From a virus: DNA of 64,000 bases. A program made the translations under genes and the position numbers. The stretch lies in IMG/VR virus record IMGVR_UViG_3300005095_000072, positions 1 through 64,000 of that record. One strand, 5' to 3'. This document shows, one piece after another, positions 19,600-64,000 of the stretch. How positions within the stretch are numbered: position 1 is the stretch's first letter; each line of letters begins with the position of its first letter. The notes beneath the pieces are model-generated. The model was not told the DNA's origin. It saw nothing but the letters and a program-made list of their open reading frames with translations, and did not search any database.

Positions 19600-19935
19600 A
19601 TGAAGATTATAGCAATGAAGTCATCAACGGTAAAATTTACAGCACCTAAAATCGAAAATATGTTTGTTAGAGAGCTGAAAAGACTTCCTAAGTTAAATAA
19701 AATATTTTCTAATATAGTAACTGTAGTTACTAAAAAGCTTAGAGATAAGACAGAATTTATTTTTAGTTTAAATTTCAATGAAGCTTTGAGTAATGATTTA
19801 AAAGAAAAATATAGTATGCTTGTAAAGATGTCTATCGCTCATAAGCTTAAGGGTAGTAATTACAGAGTAGAGATAAAGCAGATTAAATCTGTTAAGGATA
19901 ATGAGTTAAGATATAAGGTTATAGTGTATATTTAA
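19600..19935 (+). CDS. hypothetical protein (MKIIA N-terminus)
   Basis: AAGGA RBS. Confidence 0.55.
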   Translation: MKIIAMKSSTVKFTAPKIENMFVRELKRLPKLNKIFSNIVTVVTKKLRDKTEFIFSLNFNEALSNDLKEKYSMLVKMSIAHKLKGSNYRVEIKQIKSVKDNELRYKVIVYI

Positions 19936-19945
19936 TTATATCATA

Positions 19946-19978
19946 TTTAAGCTAGTTTTAAGTTTATTATGATATAAT
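19946..19978 (+). promoter_or_regulatory. host sigma70-type promoter (Campylobacterota style)
   Basis: TTTAAGctagtTTTAAG...TGaTATAAT; near-identical copies at 23267 and 31320. Confidence 0.75.
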
Positions 19979-20383
19979 TATAGATGGTTAAAAAGTTAAA
20001 GCTCTTTGGCTATTGTTCTTTTTATGTTTATATTTGTTTAGAGAAAATTATAATATAAGTAGCTTTATATAAAAGTTTATGTAATCGCAATTTATATTCC
20101 ATAATATAGAGTTTCAAACTAAGTGCTATATAAGATTTGTTAGAAAAAATAATATAGAGGGCTGTTAAATGGCTATATAAAGCAAAAGTATTATAAAAGA
20201 GTATCAAAGTATATCTTAGTCATCTATGGCTCTTAGAATCTAGTTTAAGAGTGATTAAGATATATAATCAAGCAAATATAAATATATGTTCTTTAAAAAG
20301 ATAATGTTAAAAATCTAAATATTACTAAAGCTTATAGTATCTCTAATCCTTAAAGATTTTAAAAATTCTAATAAGGAAAGAAA
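19979..20383 (+). ncRNA. structured 5' leader A (homologous to leader B), with boxA-like motifs and the 5' arm of a long-range stem
   Basis: Shares ordered blocks with 31354-31771; 20314-20348 is complementary to 22322-22354. Confidence 0.65.
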
Positions 20384-22297
20384 ATGAAAAAATTTGATAA
20401 ATTTCAAAGAGATATTATAAATTATGAAGTAAAAGAGGATTCATGTCTTACAGTCCAAGCAGGTGCAGGTAGTGGTAAATCAACTACAATGGTCGGAAAG
20501 TGTATGAGATTGATTGAAGATGGATTAAATCCTAGTTCGATATTGATGACTACATTTTCTAATAAGTCTGTGAGAGATTTAAAACATAAATTTAAAGCAA
20601 TGTATCCTAATCAAATAAAGTTACCTCAGATAACAACTTTACATAGTTTTGGTATTTACCTTTTAAAAGAGGTTATAGGTCTTGATTTTAAAGTTATAAA
20701 TGAAAGTCAAGCTACTAAGCTAATGTTAGAGGTGTTAGAAGAGGAAGGCTTTTTTGAAGATGTAGAAGATAAGCAAAAATACCCTTTTGCTAAAACAGTT
20801 CAAGAATATATAGCTGTTTATAAAGAGCAGAACTTAGGGTATCTTGAAATATTGTCAGATAAAGACTTTGATATTTTTCAATATTCAAATGAAGTAACTA
20901 AGGTCTTTAATCGTTTTCAATTCTTAAGAATAGCAAAAGCATATCATAACAAAAAACAAAGTGAAGAGGTCTTAGACTTCGGAGATTTGGTATATGAAGC
21001 TTTTCATATCTTAAGAGAAAATGAAGAGATTTTAGAAGATGTTAGAAAAATGTTTAAGTTTGCTATAATCGACGAAGCTCAAGATATTAATCAAGTTCAA
21101 TGGGATTTGATTATGCTTATCTTTCAAGGAAAGAAACTTGTCGCTGTTGGTGATAGAGTCCAAAATATCTATAATTTTAGATATTCTATGCCTGAGAACT
21201 TTACTCCTGATTATTTAGGTAAATTTTTCTCTAATGTTAAAGAATTAGAGTTAAAATATAACTATAGGAGTAAAAAAGAGATAGTGGAATTTGGAAACAT
21301 TGTGAGAGTCATTGCAGGTAATACTTTGCAGTTGTTACCATATCAAGAGAGCAAACCTGACTCTGTGAGATTTGAAGCTGTATATGATAATGTACAAGAA
21401 GGTAATAAAGTTGCTGAAATCATAAAGGATTTGGTAGAAAATCAAGGTTACGATTATAAAGATATTAGTATAGTTATTCGTGGCAATGCTGTTATTAAAA
21501 CTATAGTTGAACCTTCTCTTATTAAAGAGAAAATCCCTTATCTTATTAAAAATAATACCACTGGGGCAAAAATGACAGATAGGCTTTCAACGGAGTTGTT
21601 TTTTAATGCTTTGTCTGTAGTCTATGATATAAATGATAAGTTTGCTTTTGTGGATTTTTTAAGAGAGTTGGATTATCCTTTGGAAGAAATAGAAAAAGTA
21701 TCAGATTTTCTGCAAAATAATCCTTTAGAAGATGTTACGAGCTTAGATGATGAGTTCATAACAGATTTGTATAATAATTTTGTATCTATGCATGATTTGC
21801 TTGATGGTTATGATAAAGTTGAAATCATCTTATCTGATATATATCATATTATTAAAAATAATGTAAATTCGGTCTATGGTGGGGATTTAAGTTTAGTGTA
21901 TAAATCTATTGTAAATCTTTGGTATAACATCAAGGCTGAAAATACAGAGAGTAGTATAAAAGAGACTCTCCAAGAGATGATAGTAAGGGTAAGAGATTTT
22001 GATGAAGCAAAAGAAGCAAACAAAGTACAGTTAGGAACTATCCATAGTTTTAAAGGATTGGAAAGTAAAGTATCTATAGTTTGTGGATTTACAAGCTTTC
22101 GCCCTAAGAAAGACCCTCTTAATGATGAAGCAAATATGCTTTATGTGCAAGTATCAAGAGCTATGGAAAAGCTATTTATAGTAAATAGCTACAATTTTGT
22201 TAGCAAGAATTTTAAAACAAGTGAAGGTTATATAAATGAGTATCTTTCAAGTGCTGTTTTAAAATATAAAAGGCTTAGAGGTTTGATAAGAGGTTAA
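20384..22297 (+). CDS. UvrD/PcrA/Rep-family SF1A helicase (paralogue 1, acidic)
   Basis: AGAGSGKS, TFSNKS, TLHSFG, IIDEAQD, VGD..Q, NYRS, TIHSFKGLE, YVQVSRA. Confidence 0.9.
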   Translation: MKKFDKFQRDIINYEVKEDSCLTVQAGAGSGKSTTMVGKCMRLIEDGLNPSSILMTTFSNKSVRDLKHKFKAMYPNQIKLPQITTLHSFGIYLLKEVIGLDFKVINESQATKLMLEVLEEEGFFEDVEDKQKYPFAKTVQEYIAVYKEQNLGYLEILSDKDFDIFQYSNEVTKVFNRFQFLRIAKAYHNKKQSEEVLDFGDLVYEAFHILRENEEILEDVRKMFKFAIIDEAQDINQVQWDLIMLIFQGKKLVAVGDRVQNIYNFRYSMPENFTPDYLGKFFSNVKELELKYNYRSKKEIVEFGNIVRVIAGNTLQLLPYQESKPDSVRFEAVYDNVQEGNKVAEIIKDLVENQGYDYKDISIVIRGNAVIKTIVEPSLIKEKIPYLIKNNTTGAKMTDRLSTELFFNALSVVYDINDKFAFVDFLRELDYPLEEIEKVSDFLQNNPLEDVTSLDDEFITDLYNNFVSMHDLLDGYDKVEIILSDIYHIIKNNVNSVYGGDLSLVYKSIVNLWYNIKAENTESSIKETLQEMIVRVRDFDEAKEANKVQLGTIHSFKGLESKVSIVCGFTSFRPKKDPLNDEANMLYVQVSRAMEKLFIVNSYNFVSKNFKTSEGYINEYLSSAVLKYKRLRGLIRG

Positions 22298-22321
22298 AAT
22301 CCTCTTATCATAAATGTATAT

Positions 22322-22354
22322 GATTAGAGTCTATAAGCTTTAGTAATATTTAGA
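22322..22354 (+). other. 3' arm of long-range stem A (inverted repeat of 20314-20348)
   Basis: 24-nt perfect plus 8-nt perfect reverse complement separated by an internal loop. Confidence 0.85.
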
Positions 22355-22365
22355 GAGGTAAAAAG

Positions 22366-23271
22366 ATGAGTGAAAATCAAGATATAAAGCTGTTAGAAAA
22401 AACAGACGATTTACTATGGGTAGTAGAAAATGAAAAGTTTGTCTATGATAGTGGCAACTGGTTTTGTATAGCTGAAAGCTGTGAAGGTTGTGAGTATAAA
22501 GAGGTATGTCAGTATGAAGAAGATGAACTTGAAATATCTCTTATTAAAGCTACAAGACGAAATGTAGGGGCAGGGTTTAAGGAAGATATAGGAGATGAAC
22601 CATCTTCTGAGAAAATAGATATAAATAAATTAGAAAAGTATCAAAATAAACATCTTAAGTGGATTGATAATGAAAAAGGTTATTTACCTATAAGTAATAA
22701 GAGGATATATAAAAAGATTATAAATATAAAAGAAACCAACTATAAAAAGAATGAAATACCTTTCGTTTTATATAGTGAAGATGATGAAGCTTATTATTGT
22801 GTTAGACAAGTTTGTTCTAATTGTAAATATCTTGATAAGTGCAAGGTAGAGTTACAAGAGAAAGACTTTCAAATGTTAGTAGTGTCTAATGATATTCGTA
22901 GTCAAGAACCTAGAGGATTTACAATTTTATCTAAAGAACCAAATTGGGTTTCTGTCTTTGTTAACGACAATCTGAGACAGGAAAAAGGGTTATTAGATTT
23001 TATAGATTTTATTTTTAGAGAAGAGTTAAGGGTAGATGTAAAATCAGACCAAGCTTATTTTACATATCTTGATAATAGATTTTTCTTTGATAGAACTTTA
23101 CTTTATAAATTAAATTACAATTGTTTGAAATATCAAGAAACTGAAAAAGTAGAGTATAAGAGAGAGATAGAAAAGTTAATTAAACACTTTAAAGAAGATT
23201 ATAACAACTTTAAGGAAAATGAGTTAGGAAAAACAGTTAAAATAGCAAATATAAAAAATTTAAAGATTTAA
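22366..23271 (+). CDS. hypothetical protein with two Cys4 clusters
   Basis: CIAESCEGCEYKEVC and CVRQVCSNCKYLDKC. Confidence 0.6.
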   Translation: MSENQDIKLLEKTDDLLWVVENEKFVYDSGNWFCIAESCEGCEYKEVCQYEEDELEISLIKATRRNVGAGFKEDIGDEPSSEKIDINKLEKYQNKHLKWIDNEKGYLPISNKRIYKKIINIKETNYKKNEIPFVLYSEDDEAYYCVRQVCSNCKYLDKCKVELQEKDFQMLVVSNDIRSQEPRGFTILSKEPNWVSVFVNDNLRQEKGLLDFIDFIFREELRVDVKSDQAYFTYLDNRFFFDRTLLYKLNYNCLKYQETEKVEYKREIEKLIKHFKEDYNNFKENELGKTVKIANIKNLKI

Positions 23272-23299
23272 GCTTGTTTTAAAGTTATTATGATATAAT
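23267..23299 (+). promoter_or_regulatory. host sigma70-type promoter upstream of the sigma-like gene
   Basis: TTTAAGcttgtTTTAAAgttattaTGaTATAAT. Confidence 0.7.
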
Positions 23300-23327
23300 T
23301 AAATATCTAAAAATTTTAAGGAAAAAG

Positions 23328-24416
23328 GTGGGTAATATGGCATTATATAAGACTATTGAAATTTTGGAAAAGTCTATATGGGAGCAGTTGAGAATAGCAG
23401 GATTAAAAGAGATAGCAGAACAAGAGAAAATAAATATAGCATCTCTTTTATGGAACTTATCTTCTAAATATTTATCGTATTATATAGAGGATATTAAAGA
23501 AGAACTTTTATATGATATGTTTGTTGATGTATATCTTAGAAAGTTGGAGCAGTTAGAAGAAACTTATAACAAGAAACAAAAATTATACACTTTCTTATAT
23601 AGTATAATGAAGAACTCTCTTATATATCATAGTAATAAAAGGTTACAAGTATTACAAATGCAAAAAGATGTAAATCCTATTGAAGACGAAAGTGAAGGTG
23701 AAGCTTGGGATAGAGTTACAATGGGTAAATCTTCTGTTAAAACTACATCCACTTATGGTGATGATTTATATTATGATAGTTTAATAGAGGATTATACTAA
23801 TCTTCTAAATAGTATTCTCCTTGAAGAGAGAGAAGTAGATAACCCTAAAAAAGTTATAGATAGTCTTAAAAAGAAAATAGATAAGCTTAAAGAACAAAAA
23901 TATAAAGCTGAGGGGTTTATGTCTAATGAAAAAATAGTATCTAGTAAGTTTGCAGATATGTATAGACCTGATTACAATGATATAGATGTAGAGGGAGAAG
24001 AAGATTATAAAAAATATGTAGATATGTTAAAAAATAAGCTGTTAGAGAAAGTTTATAAGTTCAGACAAGAATATATTAAAAGTTGGGATGATAAAAAGTT
24101 AAAAGTCATAGATTTACTAATTAATGATTTTTCTTTTAGTGAGATAGCATATCTGTATGGGGTAACAGGGGTTACTATTTCTAAGTGGGTAGAACAGATT
24201 AAAGATGCTTTTATAGAGGTAGGAGAAGAGTTAGAGTTTTTTACAGATGATAACTCTCTCATAAATTCTATCATAGATTGGCTAGATTGTGTAGATGAAA
24301 GTAAAAACACTAAAAAGATTTTAAGAATAGATATGAGTATCGTAGAACAAAATGTTTGTAATTTGTTTGGAGAAGACTTTCTTAGAGAGATAAAGCAATA
24401 TGAAAACAAAAGGTAA
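23328..24416 (+). CDS. putative phage RNA polymerase sigma factor (ECF-like sigma2 plus sigma4 HTH)
   Basis: ELLYDMFVDVY..LYTFLYSIMKNSLIYH resembles ECF region 2; FSFSEIAYLYGVTGVTISKW is a region-4-like HTH. Confidence 0.6.
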   Translation: MGNMALYKTIEILEKSIWEQLRIAGLKEIAEQEKINIASLLWNLSSKYLSYYIEDIKEELLYDMFVDVYLRKLEQLEETYNKKQKLYTFLYSIMKNSLIYHSNKRLQVLQMQKDVNPIEDESEGEAWDRVTMGKSSVKTTSTYGDDLYYDSLIEDYTNLLNSILLEEREVDNPKKVIDSLKKKIDKLKEQKYKAEGFMSNEKIVSSKFADMYRPDYNDIDVEGEEDYKKYVDMLKNKLLEKVYKFRQEYIKSWDDKKLKVIDLLINDFSFSEIAYLYGVTGVTISKWVEQIKDAFIEVGEELEFFTDDNSLINSIIDWLDCVDESKNTKKILRIDMSIVEQNVCNLFGEDFLREIKQYENKR

Positions 24417-26722: not shown

Positions 26723-28720
26723 ATGAAACGACTTAAAAAGGCAAAAAGAAACACACTTATAAAAATTGATGGTGTTACCTTAGATAAATATCAAAGTAAA
26801 GTTTATAAGAAAAATATTGATAATAATGAAGCACTTATAATTCAAGCAGTGGCAGGAGCAGGTAAATCTACTACAATGATATATAAAGCTTATAGGTATA
26901 TTGTTAAAGATAAGGTAGAACCTGAAAAAATATTATTAACAACTTTTAGTAATAAATCTGCTAGAGATTTAAAGAATAAATTTAAAAAGGTTGCTAGAGG
27001 AAAGATAACAGGAAGTCCTATTATCACAACTATTCATTCTTTTGGTATTCATATTATTAAAAAATATTTAGGTAATACAACTCCTATCATATTATCTGAG
27101 TGGAAGTCAATATTACTTATAAGAGAGATAGCAGATGATATAGGTTTATTTGTAACAGAAGACGATATACCATTAAAAAAGAAAGAGCAAACTGTAATAG
27201 CTAGAAAAATCTATGAAGCTTTAGACTATTTAAAATCTAATATGATAATAAATAGTATTGATAAGTTCAAGGAAAAAGACTTTAATATTCACGATTACAA
27301 AAACTATGAAGCTTATTTTACTTCTATAGCTTTTAATGAAGTTGCATACAGGTATGAAAAGCAAAAAGAAAAGTTAAAGATGTATGATTACCACGATTTA
27401 GTTTTTAAGATATATTCTATATTAGTTCATCAACCTACAATATTGAAAAAAGTCAAAAAAGATTTAGAAGTATTTATTATAGATGAAGCACAAGATTTAG
27501 ACAGTTCTCAATGGGCTATGCTGTTGCTGTTAGCTAAAGGAAAAAAGCTCATAGCTGTTGGAGATAAAATGCAGAACATATATAATTTTAGATATTCTGT
27601 ACCTCATAATTTTACTGTAGAGTATTTATCAAAACATTTCAAAAAAGTTCATAAGTTACCTTTGGTAAATAATTATAGAAGTACAAAAAATATAGTAAAT
27701 GTTTCTAATTTAGTCCGTAAGTTATATAAGGATGAGTTAGAAGCTGTAGCTATAAAAAGCAAAGAACAGAACTCTGTTAAGATAATATATGCTAGAAGTA
27801 ATATCCAAGAGGGTAAATTAATAACTGACAATATAAAAAGATTGAGAAAAGAGGGGTATAACTATAAAGATATAACTATCATCTGTAGGAGTAATAGTTA
27901 TATAAAAACTGTAGTTGAACCTGCTTTAGTTAGAGACAATCTACCATATAATATTTTAACTAAGTCTGTCGCTAAGAAACTAACAGATAAAGTATCTAAT
28001 CAAATATACTTCAATATTTTATCATTAATAGTTAATCCAAATGATTTTACAGCTTTAGCAGACTTATCTGCTTATATTAGAGATTGTGGGGAGAAATTTC
28101 AAAACGATTTAACTAAACAATTATTAAAGTATGGTGATATAAGGAAAGTTAGATTTGATACTAAACAGGCTAAATATAAGCTAGATAAAGTAATAAAAGT
28201 ATATCAGTATATATTTGCTATAAGAAAGAATTTAAGGTCTGTAAATGAAATGCACAAAGCTTTAGATGTTATATCTTATTTAGTTCGCTCAGAGTTCAAG
28301 GAAGATATATTATCAAAGAAAGAACAAGATACTATTGAAAAGGTTATTACTAATTGGGTTAATTATTATGCTAAGGACGGCATAGTAGATGTATTTGAGA
28401 ACTTAAATCAAGTACTATTCGAGATAGATAGTTTTGATGAAGACGAAGAAGTGGATAAAGTTAAGGTAGGAACTATTCATTCTCAAAAAGGACTTGATAA
28501 TCCTGTTTCTATTGTATCAGGCTTTAATACATATAAGCCAAGATCAGACCCTTTAAATGATGAGTGCAATATGTTATATGTACAGTTATCTCGTGCAGTA
28601 GATAAACTAATAATAATAGTTTCAGATAAGTATGTCTTAAAAGATGGAACTGTGTTAAATGGTAATATATTAGCTCCTATGAAAAAGATATTAGATGTCG
28701 TTTATTTTAATAAACAGTAA
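26723..28720 (+). CDS. UvrD/PcrA/Rep-family SF1A helicase (paralogue 2, basic)
   Basis: AVAGAGKS, TFSNKS, IIDEAQD, NYRS, TIHSQKG, YVQLSRA. Confidence 0.9.
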   Translation: MKRLKKAKRNTLIKIDGVTLDKYQSKVYKKNIDNNEALIIQAVAGAGKSTTMIYKAYRYIVKDKVEPEKILLTTFSNKSARDLKNKFKKVARGKITGSPIITTIHSFGIHIIKKYLGNTTPIILSEWKSILLIREIADDIGLFVTEDDIPLKKKEQTVIARKIYEALDYLKSNMIINSIDKFKEKDFNIHDYKNYEAYFTSIAFNEVAYRYEKQKEKLKMYDYHDLVFKIYSILVHQPTILKKVKKDLEVFIIDEAQDLDSSQWAMLLLLAKGKKLIAVGDKMQNIYNFRYSVPHNFTVEYLSKHFKKVHKLPLVNNYRSTKNIVNVSNLVRKLYKDELEAVAIKSKEQNSVKIIYARSNIQEGKLITDNIKRLRKEGYNYKDITIICRSNSYIKTVVEPALVRDNLPYNILTKSVAKKLTDKVSNQIYFNILSLIVNPNDFTALADLSAYIRDCGEKFQNDLTKQLLKYGDIRKVRFDTKQAKYKLDKVIKVYQYIFAIRKNLRSVNEMHKALDVISYLVRSEFKEDILSKKEQDTIEKVITNWVNYYAKDGIVDVFENLNQVLFEIDSFDEDEEVDKVKVGTIHSQKGLDNPVSIVSGFNTYKPRSDPLNDECNMLYVQLSRAVDKLIIIVSDKYVLKDGTVLNGNILAPMKKILDVVYFNKQ

Positions 28721-28739: not shown

Positions 28740-29570
28740 ATGTTAAGATTTATAAGATACCAACTTTTTAAACATTTTAATTTATATAGAAGTGAGTTCA
28801 TCACAACTAGAGCTTTAGTCCCTATTAAGTTATTTGATGAAAAGTATTTAAAGAATGAAATAGATAGATATATTTTAAGTGAAAAGGTCGATAAACTTCA
28901 AAAGAAAAAAGAAAAGCTAGTTAAAGAAACTAAAGAGTTAGAGCAGGGGTTATCTCATTTTAAAGGTAAAGTAGATAAAGAACTGTTTGATTTAATGAAG
29001 CAGTATTTAGAGTTAAGAGAGAAATTAGCTACCTCTAAAGAAGATTTAGAAGATATACAAAAAATGAAAGAAGACTTTTTAAATCAAGATAGTAGTAATA
29101 AAAAACAAAAAACTATAAAAAAGAAACCTAAATATGAAAAGAAAACTAAATTATATAAACATCTTGCTAGTATATATCATCCAGATAAAGCACCAAAAGA
29201 TAAGAAAGATTTGTATAAAGATATATTTATAGAACTTAATGAAATTTATAGATTAGGTGATTATAAGGCTTTAGTGAAGTTTCAAAAAAGAGTTAAACAG
29301 ATGTTATTTAAAAGTAAAAGAGTTTCTTTTTTAAGGAAAGTATTAAAGCAGTTAAAACAAGAGATAGCTATGTATTCTAAACAACTGGAAGAAGCTAAGA
29401 AGACTGAAATATATAAAAATTATATTATGTGTAAGGATAATCCTTATTATATGAGTGTGTATATCAGAAAAGAGAGACATAAGTTACAAAGAACTATAGA
29501 AGAATTAGAAAATATTTATTACAGCTCAATAAGAAATAGTATTACAAGATATGAGTATAACATTTTGTAA
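28740..29570 (+). CDS. coiled-coil protein with internal J-domain (DnaJ-like)
   Basis: LYKHLASIYHPDK....FIELNEIY (HPD motif). Confidence 0.7.
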   Translation: MLRFIRYQLFKHFNLYRSEFITTRALVPIKLFDEKYLKNEIDRYILSEKVDKLQKKKEKLVKETKELEQGLSHFKGKVDKELFDLMKQYLELREKLATSKEDLEDIQKMKEDFLNQDSSNKKQKTIKKKPKYEKKTKLYKHLASIYHPDKAPKDKKDLYKDIFIELNEIYRLGDYKALVKFQKRVKQMLFKSKRVSFLRKVLKQLKQEIAMYSKQLEEAKKTEIYKNYIMCKDNPYYMSVYIRKERHKLQRTIEELENIYYSSIRNSITRYEYNIL

Positions 29571-31319: not shown

Positions 31320-31353
31320 TTTAAGCTAGTTTTAAGAATTAGTATGGTATAAT
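31320..31353 (+). promoter_or_regulatory. host sigma70-type promoter (Campylobacterota style)
   Basis: TTTAAGctagtTTTAAG...TGgTATAAT. Confidence 0.75.
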
Positions 31354-31771
31354 TATCTTAGATAAAGAGGTAAAAGGCTTTATCTATGTTCTTTATCTTT
31401 ATGGTGTTTAGAGAAATTTTATAAGCTAGTATGCTTATATGAAGATTTAAGTAAATCCAAATCATCTAAGCTTTAGGTGGTGGGGTGTTAAATTGGATTA
31501 TAAGAGGAAATCTTATAAAAGAGTATCAAAGCTTAAGAGGTTTAATAAAAGCTCTTATATCTCAATTCTATTAAGATATAATGGTAAATCTTTTGAGTAT
31601 TCAAGCATTATAAAGATAGTGTTATTTAAAAATTTAATGTTAATTGGAAATATCCTTTATAAGGCTAGTTCCTTAGTCATAAAAAATATCTATCTATTTA
31701 TGCTTATTTTTATAAGTAGGTATAGATAGGTTAAATCCTAAAATTTTAAAAATTCTTATAAGGAGCAAATT
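31354..31771 (+). ncRNA. structured 5' leader B (homologous to leader A), with boxA-like motifs and the 5' arm of a long-range stem
   Basis: Shares ordered blocks with leader A; 31643-31678 is complementary to 32589-32624. Confidence 0.65.
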
Positions 31772-32581
31772 ATGGCAGAGAAAAAAGGAACTAGTTTAGT
31801 AGGTAAAGTTGTTGAAGTTGGTGGAAAAGAGTATAAAGTCATCGATGAAACAAAAAGTGTTCTTAAATGTGAGGATTCAAAAGGTGTTACAAAAAATATC
31901 TTAAAGAAAGCAAAAGCATTTAAAAGCTTAAAAATCATTGGTGATGCAGAAGCTCATGAGGCTAAAGAAACAAAAAAACCTACAAAAGAGGAGAAAGAGG
32001 TCGAGAAAAAATCATCTCCAAAAGCTGAGGTAAAACCTGTTGCTAAAGAGATAGACCCTGATGAGTGGGATAAGGAAAGTGGAAAACTTCTCTTAGAAGC
32101 TGAAGCAGAGGGGCAAGATAGTCCAGACTTCCTTTATGAGAGTTATCGTCATGTTGAGTTTTGGGTATATTCAATCCAAAGAGCTACAAAGGCTCAGAGA
32201 GTAGAATATATAAAAGCAAAGCTCAAAAAAGAGGGTAAAAATAGTCCATTTGGATTAATGTTATCTTCTTATAAAAGAGGTAACAAAATCAATCTTGATA
32301 GAGCGAAGCTCATCGATATGGTTTTAGTTGATAGAGTGCAAGAAGGTAAAAGAGTCAAAAAGCTAAATGTTGCTAAAATCATGGAAGAGCTTGATAAGCT
32401 TAAAGGTAGAAGTAGAAGCAAAATCAAGAGAGAAGAGTATGAAAGACTTATTCATCTTGTTCCTGATGACGGTATCGATGGTTTTCAAGGTTGGGCTTTC
32501 TATATGATAAGTGGAGAGTTTTACAGAGATATAGGTCTTAAGCTTACAACTAAAGAGCTTGAAGCTTTTGATTTATATTAA
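31772..32581 (+). CDS. hypothetical early protein (distant paralogue of 33749..35089)
   Basis: Strong AAGGAG RBS; small N-terminal beta domain plus K/E-rich linker. Confidence 0.7.
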   Translation: MAEKKGTSLVGKVVEVGGKEYKVIDETKSVLKCEDSKGVTKNILKKAKAFKSLKIIGDAEAHEAKETKKPTKEEKEVEKKSSPKAEVKPVAKEIDPDEWDKESGKLLLEAEAEGQDSPDFLYESYRHVEFWVYSIQRATKAQRVEYIKAKLKKEGKNSPFGLMLSSYKRGNKINLDRAKLIDMVLVDRVQEGKRVKKLNVAKIMEELDKLKGRSRSKIKREEYERLIHLVPDDGIDGFQGWAFYMISGEFYRDIGLKLTTKELEAFDLY

Positions 32582-32588
32582 GATATAA

Positions 32589-32624
32589 GGCTAGGGAGCT
32601 AGTCTTATAAAGGATATTTTCAAT
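32589..32624 (+). other. 3' arm of long-range stem B (inverted repeat of 31643-31678)
   Basis: 36 contiguous pairs: 31 Watson-Crick plus 5 G-U. Confidence 0.85.
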
Positions 32625-36001: not shown

Positions 36002-37363
36002 ATGAATAGAACTAATAGAGCTACCTCAGAAGAACTTACTAAGTTATTAGTAGATAAGCTTGTTAAAGAGTTAAAGGAAGGACAGGATTTATTTCTTACA
36101 GGCTCAGGGGGAGTTGGAAAATCATATATAACTAGATTAATTGTTAAAGAGTTCAAAAGTCCAACTATCTTAGGTAGCACTAATCAGTCAGCTTTGAATA
36201 TAAATGGAGCAACTTTACATAAGGTGTTTAAGTTAGAAACCTGCAAAAATATCAAGCAGTTAAAGGCTTATGACAGAGATAAAATAAAGAAGTTACAAGC
36301 TAGATATAACAGAAGTGAAGAGATTGTTAAGGAGTGGCATTTCAGACCTATAAAAGAGGTCTTAAATAAAACAGACTTAATTTTAATAGATGAAATATCC
36401 ATGATAAGTAAAGACACTTTTGATTTGTTTATATACAGACTAAAATCTTTAGCAGATAAGAAAATCCCTATATTGGTTGTAGGGGATTTTTATCAGTTAC
36501 CACCTGTTAATTCAGATTTAGCTTTTCTTAGTAAATATTGGAAATTCAAAACTTATGAGTTAGCAGTTATAAAGAGAACTAATGAAGTTAAGTTCAGTAA
36601 AGCTCAAATTGCGATTAGAGAGGGGAAAAAGTCCAAGCTAGTAAAATCATTAATAGATGTGTTATCTTCTCGTAAAACAGCTCCTAGTGGTGATGCTTTG
36701 AGGTTATATCCTTTAAATAAGCAAGTAAAAGCTTATAATGCTAAGAAGTTAAAAGAGCTTGAAGAGAAATCTAATAATATTGTATATACTTTCAAAACAG
36801 AGTTAGTGTTTAAGGAAGATTATATACCTAATTTTAGGGTGGATAGTTTTATAAACTCTTTACAAGTGAAAGACAGTATTAAGCTAGTAGTAGGAGCTAG
36901 AATATTGTTTATAGCAACTTATGATGGATTATATTACAATGGAGAAAGAGGAACTATCTTAGATATAAACACAGTAACAGGAGTTATAAGAGTTAAAAAA
37001 GATAATGGTAGTATTGTAGAGGTTGAAAGATTTATATTTTCAGATAAAACATATACGGTAGTAGATGGTAAGCTAACTCTTAAAAAAGAAATTGAAGTAT
37101 CTCAGTATCCTATGATATTAGCTTATGCTGTTACTATTCATAAAACACAAGGAATGACTATTGACTCACAAATAGTAATAGATTGTAAAAATTTGTTTGC
37201 TGAAGGACAGTTTTATGTAGCTATATCAAGAGCAACTAGATTAAAGAACATATATTTAAAAGATGTTGATATAAATAAGCATATCAGACCTAATATAAAG
37301 GTAAAGCAGTTTTATAATAAGTTGAAAAAGAATAATCAACTTATAAGGTTGGAGAATTATTAA
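36002..37363 (+). CDS. PIF1/RecD-like SF1B helicase
   Basis: TGSGGVGKS, NGATLH, LIDEISM, VGDFYQLPPV, LAYAVTIHKTQGMT, YVAISRA. Confidence 0.9.
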   Translation: MNRTNRATSEELTKLLVDKLVKELKEGQDLFLTGSGGVGKSYITRLIVKEFKSPTILGSTNQSALNINGATLHKVFKLETCKNIKQLKAYDRDKIKKLQARYNRSEEIVKEWHFRPIKEVLNKTDLILIDEISMISKDTFDLFIYRLKSLADKKIPILVVGDFYQLPPVNSDLAFLSKYWKFKTYELAVIKRTNEVKFSKAQIAIREGKKSKLVKSLIDVLSSRKTAPSGDALRLYPLNKQVKAYNAKKLKELEEKSNNIVYTFKTELVFKEDYIPNFRVDSFINSLQVKDSIKLVVGARILFIATYDGLYYNGERGTILDINTVTGVIRVKKDNGSIVEVERFIFSDKTYTVVDGKLTLKKEIEVSQYPMILAYAVTIHKTQGMTIDSQIVIDCKNLFAEGQFYVAISRATRLKNIYLKDVDINKHIRPNIKVKQFYNKLKKNNQLIRLENY

Positions 37364-48298: not shown

Positions 48299-49477
48299 AT
48301 GTCAGAAGAGAAAAAGAGAAGAAGACCTAAAGCTATGAGAAGCAAAAAGGCAAAAGATATTAAAAATGATATAAACACTGAAGTAGAGGATAATTACACT
48401 GTAGCTACTTCAAGTATCGGAGATAGTGCTAAGTTTTCTTTAACAAAAGACCAAATAGCTAGAATTGTAAAAGCTATGAAACCTGTTGTAAGAGAAGATA
48501 AGTTCAAAGTTGAGGTGAATCCTGCAGGTAGTAATATAATTGTATCTGTTGATGAACAAGGATTTCAAATAGGTGTTAATCTTGGAGTGCAAACTATAAA
48601 AACTAACGAAAAGTTTGTATTTTACATAGATAAATCTATTTTGCAAAGGCTTTCTGGTATAGTAGCAGATGAAATAAAATTCGATATAACTTCTGAGAAT
48701 ATGAAGTTAGATATAGCAGGAACTGCTCTTAATTTAGGTTTAACTATTGAAGAGTTTGATGTAGATTTAAACTATAAAAGTGATATATCTGAGGTTAAAC
48801 CCAATGACTGGTTAAGTGAAATGTTAAACCGTATATCTGTTAGTAAAATAGCAGATGGTAGCCCTCTCGCACCTGTTATAGCTTTAGGAAAAGACATAAG
48901 ATATGGCTCATTAAAAAACTTGTCTCTGTATAAAAAAGGCTTTAGCAAAATAAATGTTAATGTATTACCTGAGTTTGTGAATTTTATGAAAAATGCTACA
49001 ACTTTAGGAGATAACATAGAGTTTATACAAGACAATGAAAACAAGCAATTTATAGTGAAAGTAGATAATGTTATCTATAAGACTTCTATGCTTGATATTC
49101 AATTTCCTGCTGATGTTGCTAAAATGCTAGAAGAGTTAGAAAGTGAAAGCACAGCCGAGTTTAGTAGAACTAACTTATTGCTATCTTTAGAGAGATTATC
49201 TATTCCTCTTATAGGGGCAAAAACACCTGAAATAAATATTGCTTTTCAAGAGGACAAACAAAATGCTTGGGTAGTGGTTTATAGTGTAGGTAATCAAGCG
49301 AGTAATGATATATGGGAAGCGTCTTTTGTAGAAGGAACTTCAAGTGCTATTGTAAATATATACAACTTAATGGGAGCTTTAGGGGTGGTAGATGAGAATG
49401 TTACAATAATCAACTATCAAAACTTCTTAGTGGTAAGAGATACAGTACAAGATATTTTATTAGCTAAATATCTATAA
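48299..49477 (+). CDS. putative DNA sliding clamp (DnaN/beta-clamp-like)
   Basis: ~350-aa core with three repeats; AEFSRTNLLLSLERLSI resembles the DnaN domain III helix. Confidence 0.55.
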   Translation: MSEEKKRRRPKAMRSKKAKDIKNDINTEVEDNYTVATSSIGDSAKFSLTKDQIARIVKAMKPVVREDKFKVEVNPAGSNIIVSVDEQGFQIGVNLGVQTIKTNEKFVFYIDKSILQRLSGIVADEIKFDITSENMKLDIAGTALNLGLTIEEFDVDLNYKSDISEVKPNDWLSEMLNRISVSKIADGSPLAPVIALGKDIRYGSLKNLSLYKKGFSKINVNVLPEFVNFMKNATTLGDNIEFIQDNENKQFIVKVDNVIYKTSMLDIQFPADVAKMLEELESESTAEFSRTNLLLSLERLSIPLIGAKTPEINIAFQEDKQNAWVVVYSVGNQASNDIWEASFVEGTSSAIVNIYNLMGALGVVDENVTIINYQNFLVVRDTVQDILLAKYL

Positions 49478-49485
49478 GTAAGTTG

Positions 49486-49624
49486 TGAGTGTTTTGTATG
49501 TCATTGTTAAGTGGAGAAATGCAATGACACAAACACTCATCTTTTTCCTTTTCCTCTAAGAAGTCAGCATGGTAGCTTAGATAAAAAGCAAACTTTACCC
49601 ATCGCAACTCTTGCTACCGTGCTG
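49486..49624 (+). ncRNA. putative structured RNA (two hairpins plus pyrimidine tract)
   Basis: Stems 49486-49506/49522-49539 and 49565-49576/49613-49624; more GC-rich than the flanks. Confidence 0.5.
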
Positions 49625-49649
49625 TTGGATTTATAAATTTTAAGGATAA

Positions 49650-59173: not shown

Positions 59174-59509
59174 ATGAGTAAAAATAAAGACTGGAGAAAT
59201 AGTAGAATCTATAGAATATGGAAGATAACTGTTATAAGAAGAGATAGAGTTTGTCAAGTATGTGGCAGTAGAAAAAAGAGACAAGCACATCATATAAATT
59301 CTGCCAGATATTTTCCTCATTTAAGGTTTATAGCAGACAATGGTATATGCTTATGTTATAGTTGTCATTTTCATTTTTATCATATATTATTTAAAGGCGG
59401 AACTAAAAAGAAAACAACTAAAGAGGATTTTGTTAAATTTATGGAGATAGCAAAACATTATATTGAAGTAGGTAAAGGATTAAAAGGTGAGTCAAAAGGA
59501 AATATCTAA
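59174..59509 (+). CDS. HNH endonuclease
   Basis: RD..CQVCG....AHH...NGICLCYSCH. Confidence 0.85.
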   Translation: MSKNKDWRNSRIYRIWKITVIRRDRVCQVCGSRKKRQAHHINSARYFPHLRFIADNGICLCYSCHFHFYHILFKGGTKKKTTKEDFVKFMEIAKHYIEVGKGLKGESKGNI

Positions 59510-61094
59510 AGAACAGGTAGATTTATTTCATGTATCTAAGGTAAATAAGTTATCTAAAGCAAGACTTCATAAGTTAAGAGATATGGTGATATTTAAAAAC
59601 TCTCCATATCTTAATAAAGAAACTTTTGAAAAAGCATATAACAAATATAAAAAATATGTTAATTATAAATGGAAGAACTTACTTCATAAATCAGATGAAG
59701 AGTTATCTCAAATAATGATGGCTTGTGCTTATAATTATTATCTCAACAAAGACCATTATTTAAAACAAAGACCAGATGCAAATACAAGAGATTTAACTTT
59801 ATTCTTAGATACTAGATTATCTAAAGCCTATGATAGAAAAAATAAAATGTTATTGAAAAATAAGCTAGGTATAGTATTTCTTAATTATTTTGTTAAGGAA
59901 TTTATCATAGCAACCAGGGTAGATGGTAAAGAAGATAAGTCAGTATTGAAAACATCTGAAAATTGGAAACAGTTGTATAGAACTACAATAAAAACAGTTT
60001 ATCTTGGAGATGACCCAACCCCTGCAAATATATTTTCTACATTGAGGTTTAGTGATGGAGCACAGATACCATCTAATTTTAGACCTTTAAGTGCAGGTTG
60101 GATATTTTATAATTATGGTTTTTTACCTAATAAAGATAAAACTAAAGATATATATTTGCATTGTAGCTCTGAAGGGTTTTTAGGAAGATTGTTGTCGACT
60201 TTTTATATAGCATACCATAATCCTAATTATAATATACATTACTATACTATAGACCCAAATATTAATGTAGTAAAAGCTTTTGATGAAGTGGTAGAGTTTC
60301 TTAAAGATTATGGAAAAGTTAAGAACTGGTTTCCTAAGATTTTTAATATAGGTTCTGAACAAGATGAAGCTGATTTTTATAAATTGTATGGTAAGAAGTT
60401 CCATGTATCATTCACAAGCCCACCTTATTTTAATTTAGAAAAATATGCAGAGACTTATACAATACAGGCAGTCTTAGACATTGAAAATAAAACCAAAAAA
60501 GAATACTATGTAATTGATGATAAAAAAGAAAATATTACTTATATAGAAGCATTGAAGTTATATAGAAAGGGCAACACTGTTTTGTATAAAGATAATAATT
60601 TTAATATAGAAGAGAAACATAGTGAGAGTGATAAAATAGAAATAATAGATAGAGGTCAATACAGACAAGAACTTGCTAGTAAGTTAAAAATAGGTGATAA
60701 GATAAAGAGAAACAACTTGGTATATAAGATTATTAAAGTGAATAAAGTAGGTCAATCAATGAGATTTAAATCTTATGATGCTTGGAATGAGTATTTTTTG
60801 AGACCAACTGTAAAGAACATATATAACTGTTTAAACGATAGTTGTTATTTGTTGTTAAATGTAGTTAATATAAAAACTCATCCAACTTTAGAAAATGATA
60901 CCATTAGAATAGCAAAAGAGAATAATTTTAAACATATAGATACATTGAAGTTCAAAATACAAAGAGTACCGGGTTCTGTTAAACTTAAAGATGGTAGCAC
61001 AGTTCTCCTGAAAGAGTTTAAGAAAGATTGGGAACCGATATTTGTATTTCAAAAAGGAGAAGATAAAAATAAAGTTGTTAAATCTGACGAGTAA
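59487..61094 (+). CDS. phage DNA methyltransferase-like protein (SPPY) with internal insertion
   Basis: SNFRP, degenerate SAM motif CSSEGFLGRLL, IDPN, FTSPPYF..EKY, EPIFVF. Confidence 0.75.
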   Translation: MSQKEISKEQVDLFHVSKVNKLSKARLHKLRDMVIFKNSPYLNKETFEKAYNKYKKYVNYKWKNLLHKSDEELSQIMMACAYNYYLNKDHYLKQRPDANTRDLTLFLDTRLSKAYDRKNKMLLKNKLGIVFLNYFVKEFIIATRVDGKEDKSVLKTSENWKQLYRTTIKTVYLGDDPTPANIFSTLRFSDGAQIPSNFRPLSAGWIFYNYGFLPNKDKTKDIYLHCSSEGFLGRLLSTFYIAYHNPNYNIHYYTIDPNINVVKAFDEVVEFLKDYGKVKNWFPKIFNIGSEQDEADFYKLYGKKFHVSFTSPPYFNLEKYAETYTIQAVLDIENKTKKEYYVIDDKKENITYIEALKLYRKGNTVLYKDNNFNIEEKHSESDKIEIIDRGQYRQELASKLKIGDKIKRNNLVYKIIKVNKVGQSMRFKSYDAWNEYFLRPTVKNIYNCLNDSCYLLLNVVNIKTHPTLENDTIRIAKENNFKHIDTLKFKIQRVPGSVKLKDGSTVLLKEFKKDWEPIFVFQKGEDKNKVVKSDE

Positions 61095-61716: not shown

Positions 61717-64000
61717 ATGAAAAGAGATATAAGAGTCCAAAAGAGAAAAGGAAATCTTGAGCCTTTAGATATATCTAAAATTAGAAAGCAAACTAAAATA
61801 GCAGAGTTGTACGAAGATACAAGTTTGTCTGAGCTGGAGGTAGACTCACATTTACAATTTTATGATGGAATAAAAACAGAAGATATACAACAAACTCTTA
61901 TAAAAACAGCAGTAGATAAAATAAGTATAAGAAGACCTAATTGGACATTTGTAGCTTCTAGGTTGTTTTTATCTGATTTATGGCATAAGTTTGGTTTAGT
62001 ATATGGTAAAGATGAAAATGAAGTAACTCTAAAAGATGTTATTGATTACGGTATCAAAAGAAAGAAATATATAAGAACTTTAAATATTGATTATACAGAA
62101 GAGCAAATAAATGAACTTCATAATTATATGGATTTTGACAGAGACCATCAATTTACTTACTTAGGTATAAAAACTTTATATGACAGATATTTAGTAAAAG
62201 AAGATAACGGTTATCCTATTGAGATGCCACAATATATGTTTATGTTGATAGCTATGTATCTTGCTGGTAAAGAACAAGATAAAATGAATTGGACTAAGAA
62301 GTTCTATGATATGATAAGTAAGTTTGAAGTAATGATGGCAACCCCAACTCTTTCAAATGCCAGAACATTAAGACATCAATTAAGCTCCTGCTATGTAGGT
62401 TCAACTCCTGATAATATAGAAGGTATCTTTGATAGTTATAAAGAAATGGCACTGTTATCTAAATATGGTGGTGGTATCGGTTGGGACTGGTCTAAGGTAA
62501 GGGCTATGAAAGGAGAGATAGCTGGATTTAAAGGGGTAGCAGGTGGTGTAGTTCCTTTTCTTAAAATTGCTAATGATTTAGCAGTAGCAGTAGACCAGTT
62601 AGGCACTCGTGCTGGGAGTATAGCAGTTTTTCTACCAACTTGGCATTTAGATTTAATGGATTTCCTAGACTTAAAAAAGAACTCAGGAGAAGAGAGAAGA
62701 AGAACACACGATTTATTTCCTGCTTTATGGATAGACGATTATTTTATGGAATGTGTAGAGCTTGATAAAGATTGGTATTTATATGACCCTCATTCTGTAA
62801 AACAAAGATATAATATAGAACTAGACGAGTTACAAGGTAACGATTTAAAAAGAATGCTGGTTAAGTTAGCTAATGATGATAAAATCCTAAAAGAAAAATT
62901 TAAAGCCAAAGAGGTATGGAGAAAAGCACTAACCTCTTATTTTGAGTCAGGTAATCCTTTTTTAGCATTTAAGGATACAGCAAACAGAAGAAACCCAAAT
63001 AAGCATAATGGTATTATACGGTCATCCAATTTGTGTGTAACAGGTGATACGAAGATATTGACTAAAGAGTTCGGTGATATTGAGATAAATAAAGTAGTTA
63101 ATCAATCTTTAACTGTTTGGAATGGAAAAGAGTGGTCTGAAAATGTTACAATAACTCAAACTGCAATAGACTATCCTAATCTGTATAAAGTGATTATAAG
63201 TAATTTTGAAGATGGAAGAGCAGTTGAAATAAAAGCCACAGATTATCATAAATGGTATAATTCTATAGGAGAAGAATTTAGAACTAAAGATTTAAAAAAA
63301 GGTATGATTTTAGAAAGCTTTATGTTGCCTGATGGAAAAATTGAAAATAAATATGTAATCACTTATATTGAGAAGTTACTTTTACCTGAAGACACTTATT
63401 GTGCTTTAGAACCTAAAAGAAACAGGTTAATGTTTAATGGAGTCTTAACTGGTAATTGTACTGAAATCTACCAAAATACCGAGCCAAATGATTATAAATA
63501 TAACCTTTGGTTTAAAGGTTATGAAACTGCTCCTATAACTTTACATGAAAATAAAATTGTTAGTGTTATAGACCAGTCTGATACTTTAGATGGATATGAA
63601 GTCTTATACACTATAACTGTTAAAGAGCTTACAGGTGGAGAACATATTCTTTTTAATATTGAAGAGAAAAATGTATCTTTCTTTGGACAAGTAACTTGTA
63701 TAGAGAAAACACAAGGTCAAAATGGTAAAACTGCTGTTTGTAATCTTGCTAGTGTAAATCTATCTAAGATAAATACTAAAAAAGATTTTGAAAGAATTAT
63801 CCCTATAGCTATAAGAGCTTTAGATAATGTTATTGATTTGAATTATTACCCAACTAAAAAAGCTGAAAGAGCTAATAAAGAGAACAGAGCTATTGGTTTA
63901 GGTATGATGGGTGAAGCACAAATGTTAGCAGATAATAAGATAATGTTTGGAACTAAGCTACATCTTGAAAAGATAAATAGTATTTGTGAAATGTTTAGTT
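61717..64000 (+). CDS. nrdA: class Ia ribonucleotide reductase alpha subunit, intein-containing (3'-truncated by window edge)
   Basis: ATP-cone VQKRKG, ATPTLSNA, LSSCY, GGGIG, SNL[intein]CTEI, VCNLAS, RAIGLG; absent from the ORF track because it lacks a stop. Confidence 0.95.
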   Translation, partial: MKRDIRVQKRKGNLEPLDISKIRKQTKIAELYEDTSLSELEVDSHLQFYDGIKTEDIQQTLIKTAVDKISIRRPNWTFVASRLFLSDLWHKFGLVYGKDENEVTLKDVIDYGIKRKKYIRTLNIDYTEEQINELHNYMDFDRDHQFTYLGIKTLYDRYLVKEDNGYPIEMPQYMFMLIAMYLAGKEQDKMNWTKKFYDMISKFEVMMATPTLSNARTLRHQLSSCYVGSTPDNIEGIFDSYKEMALLSKYGGGIGWDWSKVRAMKGEIAGFKGVAGGVVPFLKIANDLAVAVDQLGTRAGSIAVFLPTWHLDLMDFLDLKKNSGEERRRTHDLFPALWIDDYFMECVELDKDWYLYDPHSVKQRYNIELDELQGNDLKRMLVKLANDDKILKEKFKAKEVWRKALTSYFESGNPFLAFKDTANRRNPNKHNGIIRSSNLCVTGDTKILTKEFGDIEINKVVNQSLTVWNGKEWSENVTITQTAIDYPNLYKVIISNFEDGRAVEIKATDYHKWYNSIGEEFRTKDLKKGMILESFMLPDGKIENKYVITYIEKLLLPEDTYCALEPKRNRLMFNGVLTGNCTEIYQNTEPNDYKYNLWFKGYETAPITLHENKIVSVIDQSDTLDGYEVLYTITVKELTGGEHILFNIEEKNVSFFGQVTCIEKTQGQNGKTAVCNLASVNLSKINTKKDFERIIPIAIRALDNVIDLNYYPTKKAERANKENRAIGLGMMGEAQMLADNKIMFGTKLHLEKINSICEMFS
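63034..63456 (+). mobile_element. mini-intein (141 aa, no homing endonuclease) in the NrdA active-site loop
   Basis: SNL|CVTGDTKILT ... ATDYHKW (block B TxxH) ... YC..EP......FNGVLTGN|CTEI. Confidence 0.9.

Follow-up and report, generated by a model that had tools for sequence, protein, structure and literature searches.

Two paralogous phage leaders with features of rRNA operon leaders and helices that bracket single genes

The viral record IMGVR_UViG_3300005095_000072 (118,425 bp, with direct terminal repeats) contains two related non-coding leaders of about 400 nt each: leader A (19979-20383), upstream of a UvrD-like helicase gene, and leader B (31354-31771), upstream of an open reading frame (ORF) of 269 amino acids, which we designate ORF-B. 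The window analyzed here is the first 64 kb (64,000 nt) of that record, and coordinates are those of the record unless another genome is named. We assign a probability of roughly 0.55 to the reading that the leaders belong to antitermination and processing cassettes like those of ribosomal RNA operons (rrn), placed here around a protein-coding gene. This reading is built on motifs, complementarity, covariation, and a match to rrn operons, all of which are present in the sequences, and it suggests by analogy that the phage borrows the host machinery for rRNA transcription and processing for its own messages.

Helices bracketing the first genes

An inverted-repeat scan indicated that the 3′ part of each leader is complementary to sequence directly past the first gene. 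The arms and the genes that they enclose are as follows.

20314-20349, + strand: 5′ arm of helix A (24 contiguous Watson-Crick pairs and 8-9 more after a 3-nt bulge)
20384-22297, + strand: bracketed gene A, a UvrD/PcrA-like helicase of 637 amino acids (Pfam UvrD-helicase, E = 9e-49; phrog_1967, E = 1e-70)
22321-22354, + strand: 3′ arm of helix A, which ends at the Shine-Dalgarno sequence of the following gene, whose ATG is at 22366
31643-31678, + strand: 5′ arm of helix B (36 contiguous pairs, 31 Watson-Crick and 5 G·U)
31772-32581, + strand: bracketed gene B (ORF-B), 269 amino acids, assigned to no family in Pfam and PHROG searches
32589-32624, + strand: 3′ arm of helix B, which starts 8 nt past the stop codon and pairs with 31643-31678

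In helix A, 20314-20337 pair with 22331-22354 and, past the bulge, 20341-20349 pair with 22321-22329. The duplex energies calculated with RNAduplex are −43.2 kcal/mol for helix A and −55.6 kcal/mol for helix B, compared with −14.4 ± 3.3 and −20.7 ± 3.9 kcal/mol, respectively, when the 3′ region was shuffled (n = 500). Swapping the arms between A and B yielded just −16 kcal/mol, compared with −42 and −55 kcal/mol for the cognate pairs. In a genome-wide scan for helices whose strands are 100-8000 nt apart, helix A is the single outlier (24 bp) if only Watson-Crick pairs are counted, with runners-up of 18, 17, and 16 bp. If G·U pairs are allowed, helix B is the longest (36 bp), followed by a 25-bp helix in coding regions and then by helix A. 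The 25-bp helix (59365-59389 with 61997-62021), which contains G·U pairs and lies inside the HNH and ribonucleotide-reductase genes, was judged to be a chance pairing. A local hairpin at 22286-22310 (GATAAGAGG..CCTCTTATC) overlaps the helicase stop codon just 5′ of the 3′ arm of helix A; no U-tract follows it.

A single relative was found, a 109,819-bp viral contig (G001; 37-50% protein identity), and it also carries brackets around both orthologues. Its helicase is 50% identical to helicase A, and its ORF-B orthologue, also of 269 amino acids, is 37% identical (E = 4e-46). When all of G001 was scanned with G·U pairs allowed, the long-range helix that ranked first by length (48687-48708 with 49614-49635, 22 bp) was the one enclosing the ORF-B orthologue (coding sequence 48763-49572). 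The helicase orthologue, together with an upstream ORF of 53 amino acids, is bracketed by 29192-29234 and 31473-31516 at −36.2 kcal/mol. In compact windows, the best-of-scan energies of shuffled sequences were −22.1 ± 2.7 kcal/mol with a minimum of −28.9 kcal/mol, and 0 of 60 were as good; in very wide RNAduplex windows, the helicase flanks were not significant (−59.4 versus −49.4 ± 4.7). A 15-mer, TTATATGAGCTTTTA, is repeated in intergenic sequence of the G001 replication module at 29207, 33508, and 34894 (reverse complement), and the 5′ arm of the helicase bracket contains one of these copies.

Over the two phages, four of four genes are therefore bracketed, by helices of 24 + 8, 36, 22, and about 32 interrupted bp, each with complementary flanks of 17 bp or more around the gene. 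No sequence is common to the four arm pairs, and the pairing is kept despite the change in sequence, as expected of covariation. When the four brackets and the two copies of the helix P2 (described below) are considered together, the duplex formed by + strand RNA is more stable than its − strand counterpart in five of six helices; the sixth, bracket A, is all Watson-Crick. The six helices have 15 predicted G·U pairs on the + strand and 4 on the − strand, and in the 36-bp run of helix B, each of the five positions that depart from Watson-Crick pairing is G·U on the + strand.

A boxA-type motif shared with rRNA operons

Directly 5′ of three of the four 5′ arms (A, B, and that of the G001 ORF-B leader, designated B′) is the bipartite motif TGTTMTTTAAA-N7-TGTTAA.

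20287-20310, + strand: boxA-type motif A, TGTTCTTTAAAAAGATAATGTTAA, in which 20288-20298 fits GYTCTTTAANA at 11 of 11 positions
31620-31643, + strand: boxA-type motif B, TGTTATTTAAAAATTTAATGTTAA, one of two matches to the regular expression in this genome
48661 of G001, + strand: motif B′, GGTTATTTAAAATCATATTGTTAA, a match to the same expression

GYTCTTTAANA is given as the BoxA consensus of gamma-proteobacteria in PMC5725501; it may not be that of the host, and B and B′ fit it at 10 of 11 positions. The consensus occurs twice in the forward and five times in the reverse orientation in the genome, which is a chance-level count.

A scan of bacterial genomes with the phage promoter pattern (described below) returned 24 scattered contigs. 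Two of them are from metagenome-assembled genomes of Nautiliaceae, which are part of the Campylobacterota, and these two contigs have no protein similarity to the phage. By way of this promoter-motif hit, 16S loci were sampled from the class of the Nautiliaceae and then from one family within it (Epsilonproteobacteria/Campylobacterota), which is hereafter called the sampled family. Its rrn leaders have a TTTAAG-N10/11-TATAAT promoter, a hairpin right behind it, and then the sequence TGTT(C/A/T)TTT(T)AA-N7-11-(W)TGTYAA. The 5′ strand of the 16S leader-trailer helix (GTCAATCTTTGAAATCTAAACAAG...) begins 8-25 nt past this motif, and its complement is located downstream of 16S.

Of the 19 rrn leaders of the sampled family, 16 match the regular expression for the bipartite motif. 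In both phage genomes the expression matches A, B, and B′ only, all on the + strand, and the reversed controls gave no match. A profile constructed from the 19 rrn segments alone placed B′ first, A fifth, and B sixth among its hits in both phage genomes. With a relaxed pattern, five complete genomes of the sampled family gave 25 hits and the reversed pattern gave 9; by coordinates, 21 of the 25 fall within rrn operons, with 15 located in 16S leaders and the other 6 in the 16S-23S spacer. An initial reading of this DNA from its letters alone (the sequence-only reading) had proposed antitermination as one possible role, and this idea gained ground because the boxA-like block fits a motif nearly confined to the rRNA operons of one Campylobacterota family.

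In the rrn spacers of two genomes (G043 and G044; loci L241 and L242), the motif appears again about 460 nt past 16S and before 23S, which mirrors the leader and spacer positions of boxA in other bacteria. A 23S helix past this spacer motif amounts to 15 bp spanning 3.5 kb in one of these genomes, and nothing clear was seen in the other. Comparison of the rrn leaders with both phage genomes by blastn returned short AT-rich noise only.

Promoters and 5′ hairpins

Both leaders follow a promoter-like motif and begin with a hairpin.

19946-19978, + strand: promoter-like motif A, TTTAAG-N5-TTTAAG-N10-TATAAT with a TG extension (pattern match)
31320-31353, + strand: promoter-like motif B (pattern match)
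23267-23299, + strand: third promoter copy (pattern match), with a short leader, before a sigma-factor-like ORF (phrog_1740, E = 1e-5)
19983-20014, + strand: hairpin H1-A at the predicted 5′ end of the transcript (−8.1 kcal/mol, z = −3.2)
31359-31386, + strand: 5′ hairpin H1-B (−6.4 kcal/mol, z = −3.0)

The pattern TTTAAGCTWGTTTTAA-N8-16-TATAAT has five exact matches in the genome (19946, 23267, 31320, 65911, and 73194), all on the + strand, and none in the reversed control. The motif is 33-34 nt long at A and B. Long leaders follow only two of the five copies; after the other three, a start codon lies within about 25-60 nt. The TTTAAG-N10/11-TATAAT spacing of the phage promoters is that of the rrn promoters in the sampled family. 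For H1-A and H1-B, 2 of 200 shuffles each were as good. Hairpins equivalent to H1-A, with different sequences, are present in B, in both leaders of G001, and downstream of the 73194 promoter (−8.0 kcal/mol).

The third promoter is located 29 nt upstream of an ORF (23328-24416) whose product weakly resembles phage RNA polymerase sigma factors. A phage sigma factor might recognize the promoters of this five-copy class or be expressed from them. Positions 19928-19945 and 23289-23306 form a perfect inverted repeat of 18 nt. The former stretch, which immediately precedes promoter A, corresponds to the −10 region (TATGATATAATTAAATAT) in reverse complement and pairs locally with the −10 region of promoter A itself (23 nt, 83% complementary). 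The repeat may represent a divergent promoter or a palindrome of the operator type. A very similar promoter, TTTAAGCTTGTTTTAAG-N..-TACGGTATAAT, precedes short leaders in other large phage contigs (L018 and L021, which are on one 154,998-bp viral contig, L020, and L024), and this resemblance suggests a promoter class common to several uncultured phages.

The leaders as mosaics

Alignment confirmed the observation of the sequence-only reading that leaders A and B are paralogous. The global alignment has 270 matches in 327 aligned columns and a score of 208, compared with 93.5 ± 9.3 (maximum 120.5) for 200 shuffles. All blocks that it had named are found at the positions that it gave for A and B, and they are listed here with the A coordinate before the B coordinate, followed by a hairpin of leader B.

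20014/31387, + strand: shared block TGTTCTTT
20035-36/31405-06, + strand: shared block (T)GTTTAGAGAAA
20163/31486, + strand: shared block TGTTAAAT
20191/31513, + strand: shared exact 19-mer
20268/31601, + strand: shared block TCAAGCA
20287/31620, + strand: shared boxA-like block
20356/31743, + strand: shared block ATTTTAAAAATTCT
31690-31729, + strand: strong local hairpin with an 18-bp stem, between 5′ arm B and the ribosome-binding site

The description of the two regions as homologous, non-coding, and structured with covarying helices also held. For the second of the hairpin pairs proposed to fold in both copies, the B copy (TTATAAGA/TCTTATAA) is perfect, whereas the A copy is imperfect and is paired otherwise in the minimum-energy fold. 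The z-scores for folding of the whole leaders are modest (A, −2.49 on the + strand and −0.44 on the − strand; B, −3.34 and −3.52, respectively). The leaders match no Rfam family, in line with the sequence-only reading: there were 0 Rfam matches at gathering scores in the whole window, and the best hit in a permissive scan of both loci (E = 2.2) was far under its gathering score.

Two other parts of the earlier description had to be revised. Instead of a single RNA family of about 330 nt, each leader is a mosaic of a promoter, a 5′ hairpin, an inserted domain of 225-265 nt, a boxA-type motif, and the 5′ strand of the long-range helix, the partner strand of which lies 0.9-2 kb downstream, beyond the limits first drawn. 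The sequence-only reading had stressed the conserved single-stranded blocks. The relative has the cassette without the central domain, so these blocks are specific to this genome and are not a conserved core. The ribosome-binding-site block AAATTCT..AAGGA is also found at the starts of about five other genes. Among the small ORFs that A and B could contain, the conserved block TGTTTAGAGAAA is read in differing frames, which places its conservation at the nucleotide level; a small-ORF reading of the leaders was rejected because the frame differs and no peptide is conserved. Occurrences of the exact 19-mer in three other viral contigs were attributed to chance, as all are within coding sequence and are accompanied by no further similarity.

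The central domain and helix P2

The inserted domain is flanked by a direct repeat and closed by a helix, P2.

20014-20021, + strand: first copy of the 8-nt direct repeat TGTTCTTT, repeated exactly at 20287-20294
20022-20286, + strand: central domain A, closed by the 19-bp P2 (20023-20042 with 20268-20286)
31395-31619, + strand: central domain B, closed by P2 (31393-31412 with 31601-31619)

Independent minimum-energy folds of the two leaders contain the same closing helix with the same dot-bracket pattern. The energies of P2 are −16.5 kcal/mol in A (shuffles, −8.3 ± 2.5 kcal/mol; 5 of 1000 as good) and −17.9 kcal/mol in B (−8.0 ± 2.6 kcal/mol; 1 of 1000), and non-cognate strands reach only −9.5 and −6.9 kcal/mol. 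Side-by-side reading of A and B indicates three compensatory double changes and one coordinated loss of a pair in P2. A further helix, UAAUCGC/GCUGUUA in A and UAAAUCC/GGUGUUA in B, contains one G-C to C-G swap. The conserved TGTTTAGAG and TCAAGCA form the inner ends of P2, and a long hairpin past the 19-mer is present in both copies with a rearranged sequence.

The direct repeat around the domain reads TGTTCTTT...TGTTCTTT in A and TGTTCTTT (31387)...TGTTATTT (31620) in B, so that the 8-nt repeat is exact in A and agrees at 7 of 8 positions in B. In G001, GGTTATTTAAAA is directly behind the 5′ hairpin, as expected of an empty site. A profile search with the domain found two copies only in both phage genomes and all other fetched loci (about 1 Mb). 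Terminal inverted repeats (19 bp) and a target-site duplication are those of a miniature inverted-repeat transposable element; multiple dispersed copies, which such elements also have, were not found, as the two copies share an identical context. From the sequences, the central domain looks like an insertion into the boxA site or, conversely, the product of a repeat-mediated loss in G001. Because G001 lacks the domain and has an empty site in its place, we read it as an insertion.

Proposed mechanism

The following sequence of events would apply to both genes. Transcription would start from a strong promoter of the host rRNA-promoter type (TTTAAG-N10-TATAAT), and a hairpin would protect the 5′ end of the RNA. 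The boxA-type signal TGTTMTTTAAA-N7-TGTTAA would come next and, a few nucleotides on, the 5′ strand of a leader-trailer helix of 22-36 bp, the 3′ strand of which would emerge directly behind the first gene's stop codon. If the analogy with rRNA operons holds, the signal would load a host elongation complex containing NusB and NusE onto RNA polymerase. With this complex in place, the polymerase would transcribe the long untranslated leader processively, and the 5′ strand would be retained close to the RNA exit channel up to the emergence of the trailer strand. Host RNase III might then cut the long duplex, or the duplex might simply close the mRNA into a stabilizing loop; in either case, the mRNAs of the helicase and ORF-B would be set off from their neighbors with defined and paired ends. 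The P2-closed insertion of 225-265 nt at the boxA site would fold on itself and thereby leave the flanking signal intact, with a complete copy at its 3′ side.

Alternative explanations

The leaders might instead be operators or scaffolds for a phage RNA-binding protein that reads the blocks of the central domain (AAAGAGUAUCAAAG, GGGYUGUUAAAU) and co-regulates the translation or stability of the two mRNAs, the likeness to boxA being incidental. The long exact blocks, including the 19-mer, between variable hairpins in both domain copies would suit such a protein, as would the closure of the domain by a covarying helix and the location of both genes in the replication module. However, the G001 cassettes are present on both orthologues without the domain, which therefore cannot be the conserved regulatory core, and neither the bracketing helices nor the rrn-specific motif would be explained. 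We consider such a role unlikely. It is decidedly unlikely, in our judgment, that these are DNA-level features that lack an RNA role and are traces of mobile DNA, with the central domain as a miniature inverted-repeat element (P2 as its terminal repeats, with an 8-bp target duplication) and the gene-flanking inverted repeats as the ends of gene cassettes or as recombination sites. Such an origin would agree with the 8-nt repeat (TGTTCTTT / TGTTMTTT) around a segment with inverted termini of about 19 bp, with the corresponding empty site in G001 (H1 followed by GGTTATTTAAAA), and with helix A, which is perfectly Watson-Crick and equally stable on both strands. Nevertheless, the domain has only two copies, in the same context, and none elsewhere in either phage or in the fetched loci of about 1 Mb. 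P2 has compensatory double changes and a coordinated pair deletion, its non-cognate strands fail to pair, and the mismatches are G·U on the + strand. The four bracket pairs are not sites of one recombinase, as they have no sequence in common, and reading of the sequences revealed no target duplication around the bracket arms.

A further possibility is that the regions are replication origins, in which a promoter and an AT-rich structured stretch prime replication or unwind the DNA. The origins of T4 and T7 are constructed as a promoter followed by an AT-rich structured stretch, and the present regions are long, non-coding, and promoter-led, and lie in the replication module near helicase, primase, and polymerase genes. 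However, a repeat scan detected no iterons or tandem repeats, the GC skew rises monotonically across both regions, and an origin would give no role to the strand asymmetry of pairing, the compensatory changes, or the gene-spanning helices. An origin function appears very improbable.

We prefer the antitermination and processing cassette to these explanations, but several points weigh against it. B and B′ carry A at BoxA position 4, where the consensus has C, and the C4T/T6C double mutation in BoxA abolishes function in Escherichia coli according to PMC5725501; A or T at this position is also found in some rrn leader or spacer copies of the sampled family. The regular expression for the bipartite motif was written after both the rrn and the phage sequences had been viewed, and the hits of the rrn profile are not significant singly (E = 1.5 for B′, 9.5 for A, and 9.6 for B). 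At 77 other motif sites in viral contigs (from 80 loci of at least 119 stretches), the best helix downstream of the motif has 18 bp, which is within the range of a control of 400 random positions (4 with at least 19 bp); the helices following A, B, and B′ have 24, 36, and 22 bp. The bipartite motif alone is not informative outside these cassettes. A second boxA-like sequence, AATCTTTGAAATCTAAA, is located inside the leader-trailer helix of the sampled bacteria, and either this element or the bipartite motif may be the one bound by NusB. The cassette is carried by two phage genomes only, and the G001 helicase leader has just GTTCTTATAGTGATAA (a GTTCTTA remnant), about 10 nt before the arm, and lacks the complete bipartite motif. 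The phage was not found to encode an RNase III or dsRNA-binding domain of its own. The + strand is rich in G and T, which alone favors G·U pairs, so the strand asymmetry of the helices is supportive but short of conclusive. The resemblance of motif and promoter is the only pointer to the Campylobacterota, and the link is a putative one. The transcription start, the transcript ends, the binding of Nus factors, the cleavage by RNase III, and the effect on expression are what we infer from these features.

Genome context and bracketed genes

The genome has a GC content of about 28%, every gene is on the + strand, and the GC skew is steadily positive. Both leaders are inside the replication module, which encodes a DnaB-like helicase, MazG, two UvrD-like helicases, a primase zinc finger, a polymerase exonuclease domain, and a Dda-like helicase. 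No tRNAs were found in the window, and a terminator scan found no intrinsic terminators. Known phages gave no nucleotide match and a helicase identity of at most 26.5%, single-protein scans of viral contigs gave no close relatives, and a metagenome scan for relatives returned solely an unrelated helicase. Two contigs of 139,849 and 142,226 bp encode closer helicase relatives (P0006 and P0008).

The UvrD-like helicases encoded at 20384-22297 and 26723-28720 are paralogues with 37% mutual identity, and both are likewise encoded on these contigs of about 140 kb (P0006/P0014 and P0008/P0011). Part of the Dda-like helicase gene (37103-37238) has 71-86% nucleotide identity over 55-165 nt to a Campylobacterota chromosomal locus, which occurs in many genomes of the sampled family. 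A search with 20 kb of DNA against 201 genomes of this family found just short, gene-level similarities. Farther downstream are a small HNH-endonuclease-like ORF (59175-59510), followed by an ORF of 535 amino acids, and a ribonucleotide-reductase-like ORF from 61718.

A word-index search with ORF-B found no homologue besides itself, and a set of 1.84 billion representative proteins yielded only 6 relatives. A structural model predicted from five sequences (mean pLDDT 73.5) has two domains, connected by a linker that is predicted to be disordered and acidic/lysine-rich. The N-terminal domain is modeled as a small β-barrel with weak KOW, Sm, and Tudor-like matches (Z = 5-6), and the C-terminal helical domain has a weak likeness to the DNA-binding domain of T4 DNA ligase (Z = 6.6, rmsd 4.8 over 126 residues). 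All of these matches are in a score range flagged as possibly fortuitous.

Comparison with known systems and implications

In Enterobacteriaceae, as described in the relevant passages of PMC10250234, 16S rRNA is flanked by a leader-trailer helix of 25-40 bp, for which more than 17 bp are required, and BoxA is located 18-19 nt before boxC, which is in the 5′ strand of this helix. In the current model, boxA is anchored to NusB on the polymerase, and the 5′ strand is thereby kept at the exit channel until the trailer arrives (PMC10250234). The phage leaders resemble bacterial rRNA operon leaders in having a strong promoter, leader hairpins, a boxA-type motif, and the 5′ strand of a helix of more than 17 bp with its partner past the product (PMC10250234, PMC5725501). 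Their helices also covary while the sequences differ. In contrast to rRNA operon leaders, the phage helices enclose a protein-coding gene with its own ribosome-binding site and not an rRNA; the cassette would therefore work like the rRNA leader-trailer family without being a member of it. The gap between motif and helix is 0-3 nt in the phages and about 8-25 nt in the sampled rrn leaders, and the signal of this phage contains an inserted domain of 225-265 nt.

Lambda nut (boxA and boxB, with protein N) and HK022 put are likewise leader elements of phage nascent RNA, and the present boxA-like element is similarly proposed to modify RNA polymerase. Unlike lambda nut, no boxB-type hairpin is found beside boxA, no N-like protein was identified in the phage, and the motif is nearer to the rrn form. 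To our knowledge, nut and put have no long-range helix that brackets a gene. The proposed cutting of a phage polycistronic RNA by host RNase III into defined mRNAs with stabilizing stems resembles the RNase III sites of the T7 early region. The T7 sites are local hairpins between genes, whereas the duplexes described here join sequences 0.9-2 kb apart. Pairing between the 5′ and 3′ untranslated regions occurs in icaR of Staphylococcus aureus and hbs of Bacillus subtilis, where the duplexes control mRNA stability. Correia-type miniature elements are transcribed and cut by RNase III, and the P2-closed domain with its flanking direct repeat is comparable to such a transcribed element. We know of no joining of a boxA-type signal or an rrn-type promoter to the icaR, hbs, or Correia cases. 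A limited search of full-text literature found no description of leader-trailer helices around phage or bacterial protein-coding genes, which is not proof of their absence.

A wider proposal, which we put forward tentatively as a possibility that falls short of being probable, is that a phage clade, probably infecting Campylobacterota, disguises selected mRNAs as pre-rRNA by means of an rrn-type promoter, a boxA-type signal, and a leader-trailer helix. The disguise may, on the same tentative footing, extend to recruiting the host antitermination/chaperone complex and RNase III to transcribe, fold, and excise single messages, and to the boxA site serving as the landing place of a self-folding element that spares the signal. 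If this wider proposal is true, these would be the first known leader-trailer processing cassettes around protein-coding genes. The Nus-factor complex on rRNA operons is viewed both as preventing termination and as chaperoning the long-range helix for rRNA processing. A natural case on mRNA would show that this machine is general and open to hijacking, and would offer a simple two-gene system in which the tethering model could be tested outside ribosome assembly. It would also add a third route by which phages control host elongation, besides lambda N/Q and HK022 put, and the mimicry of rrn leaders suggests a way to guess the hosts of uncultured phages.

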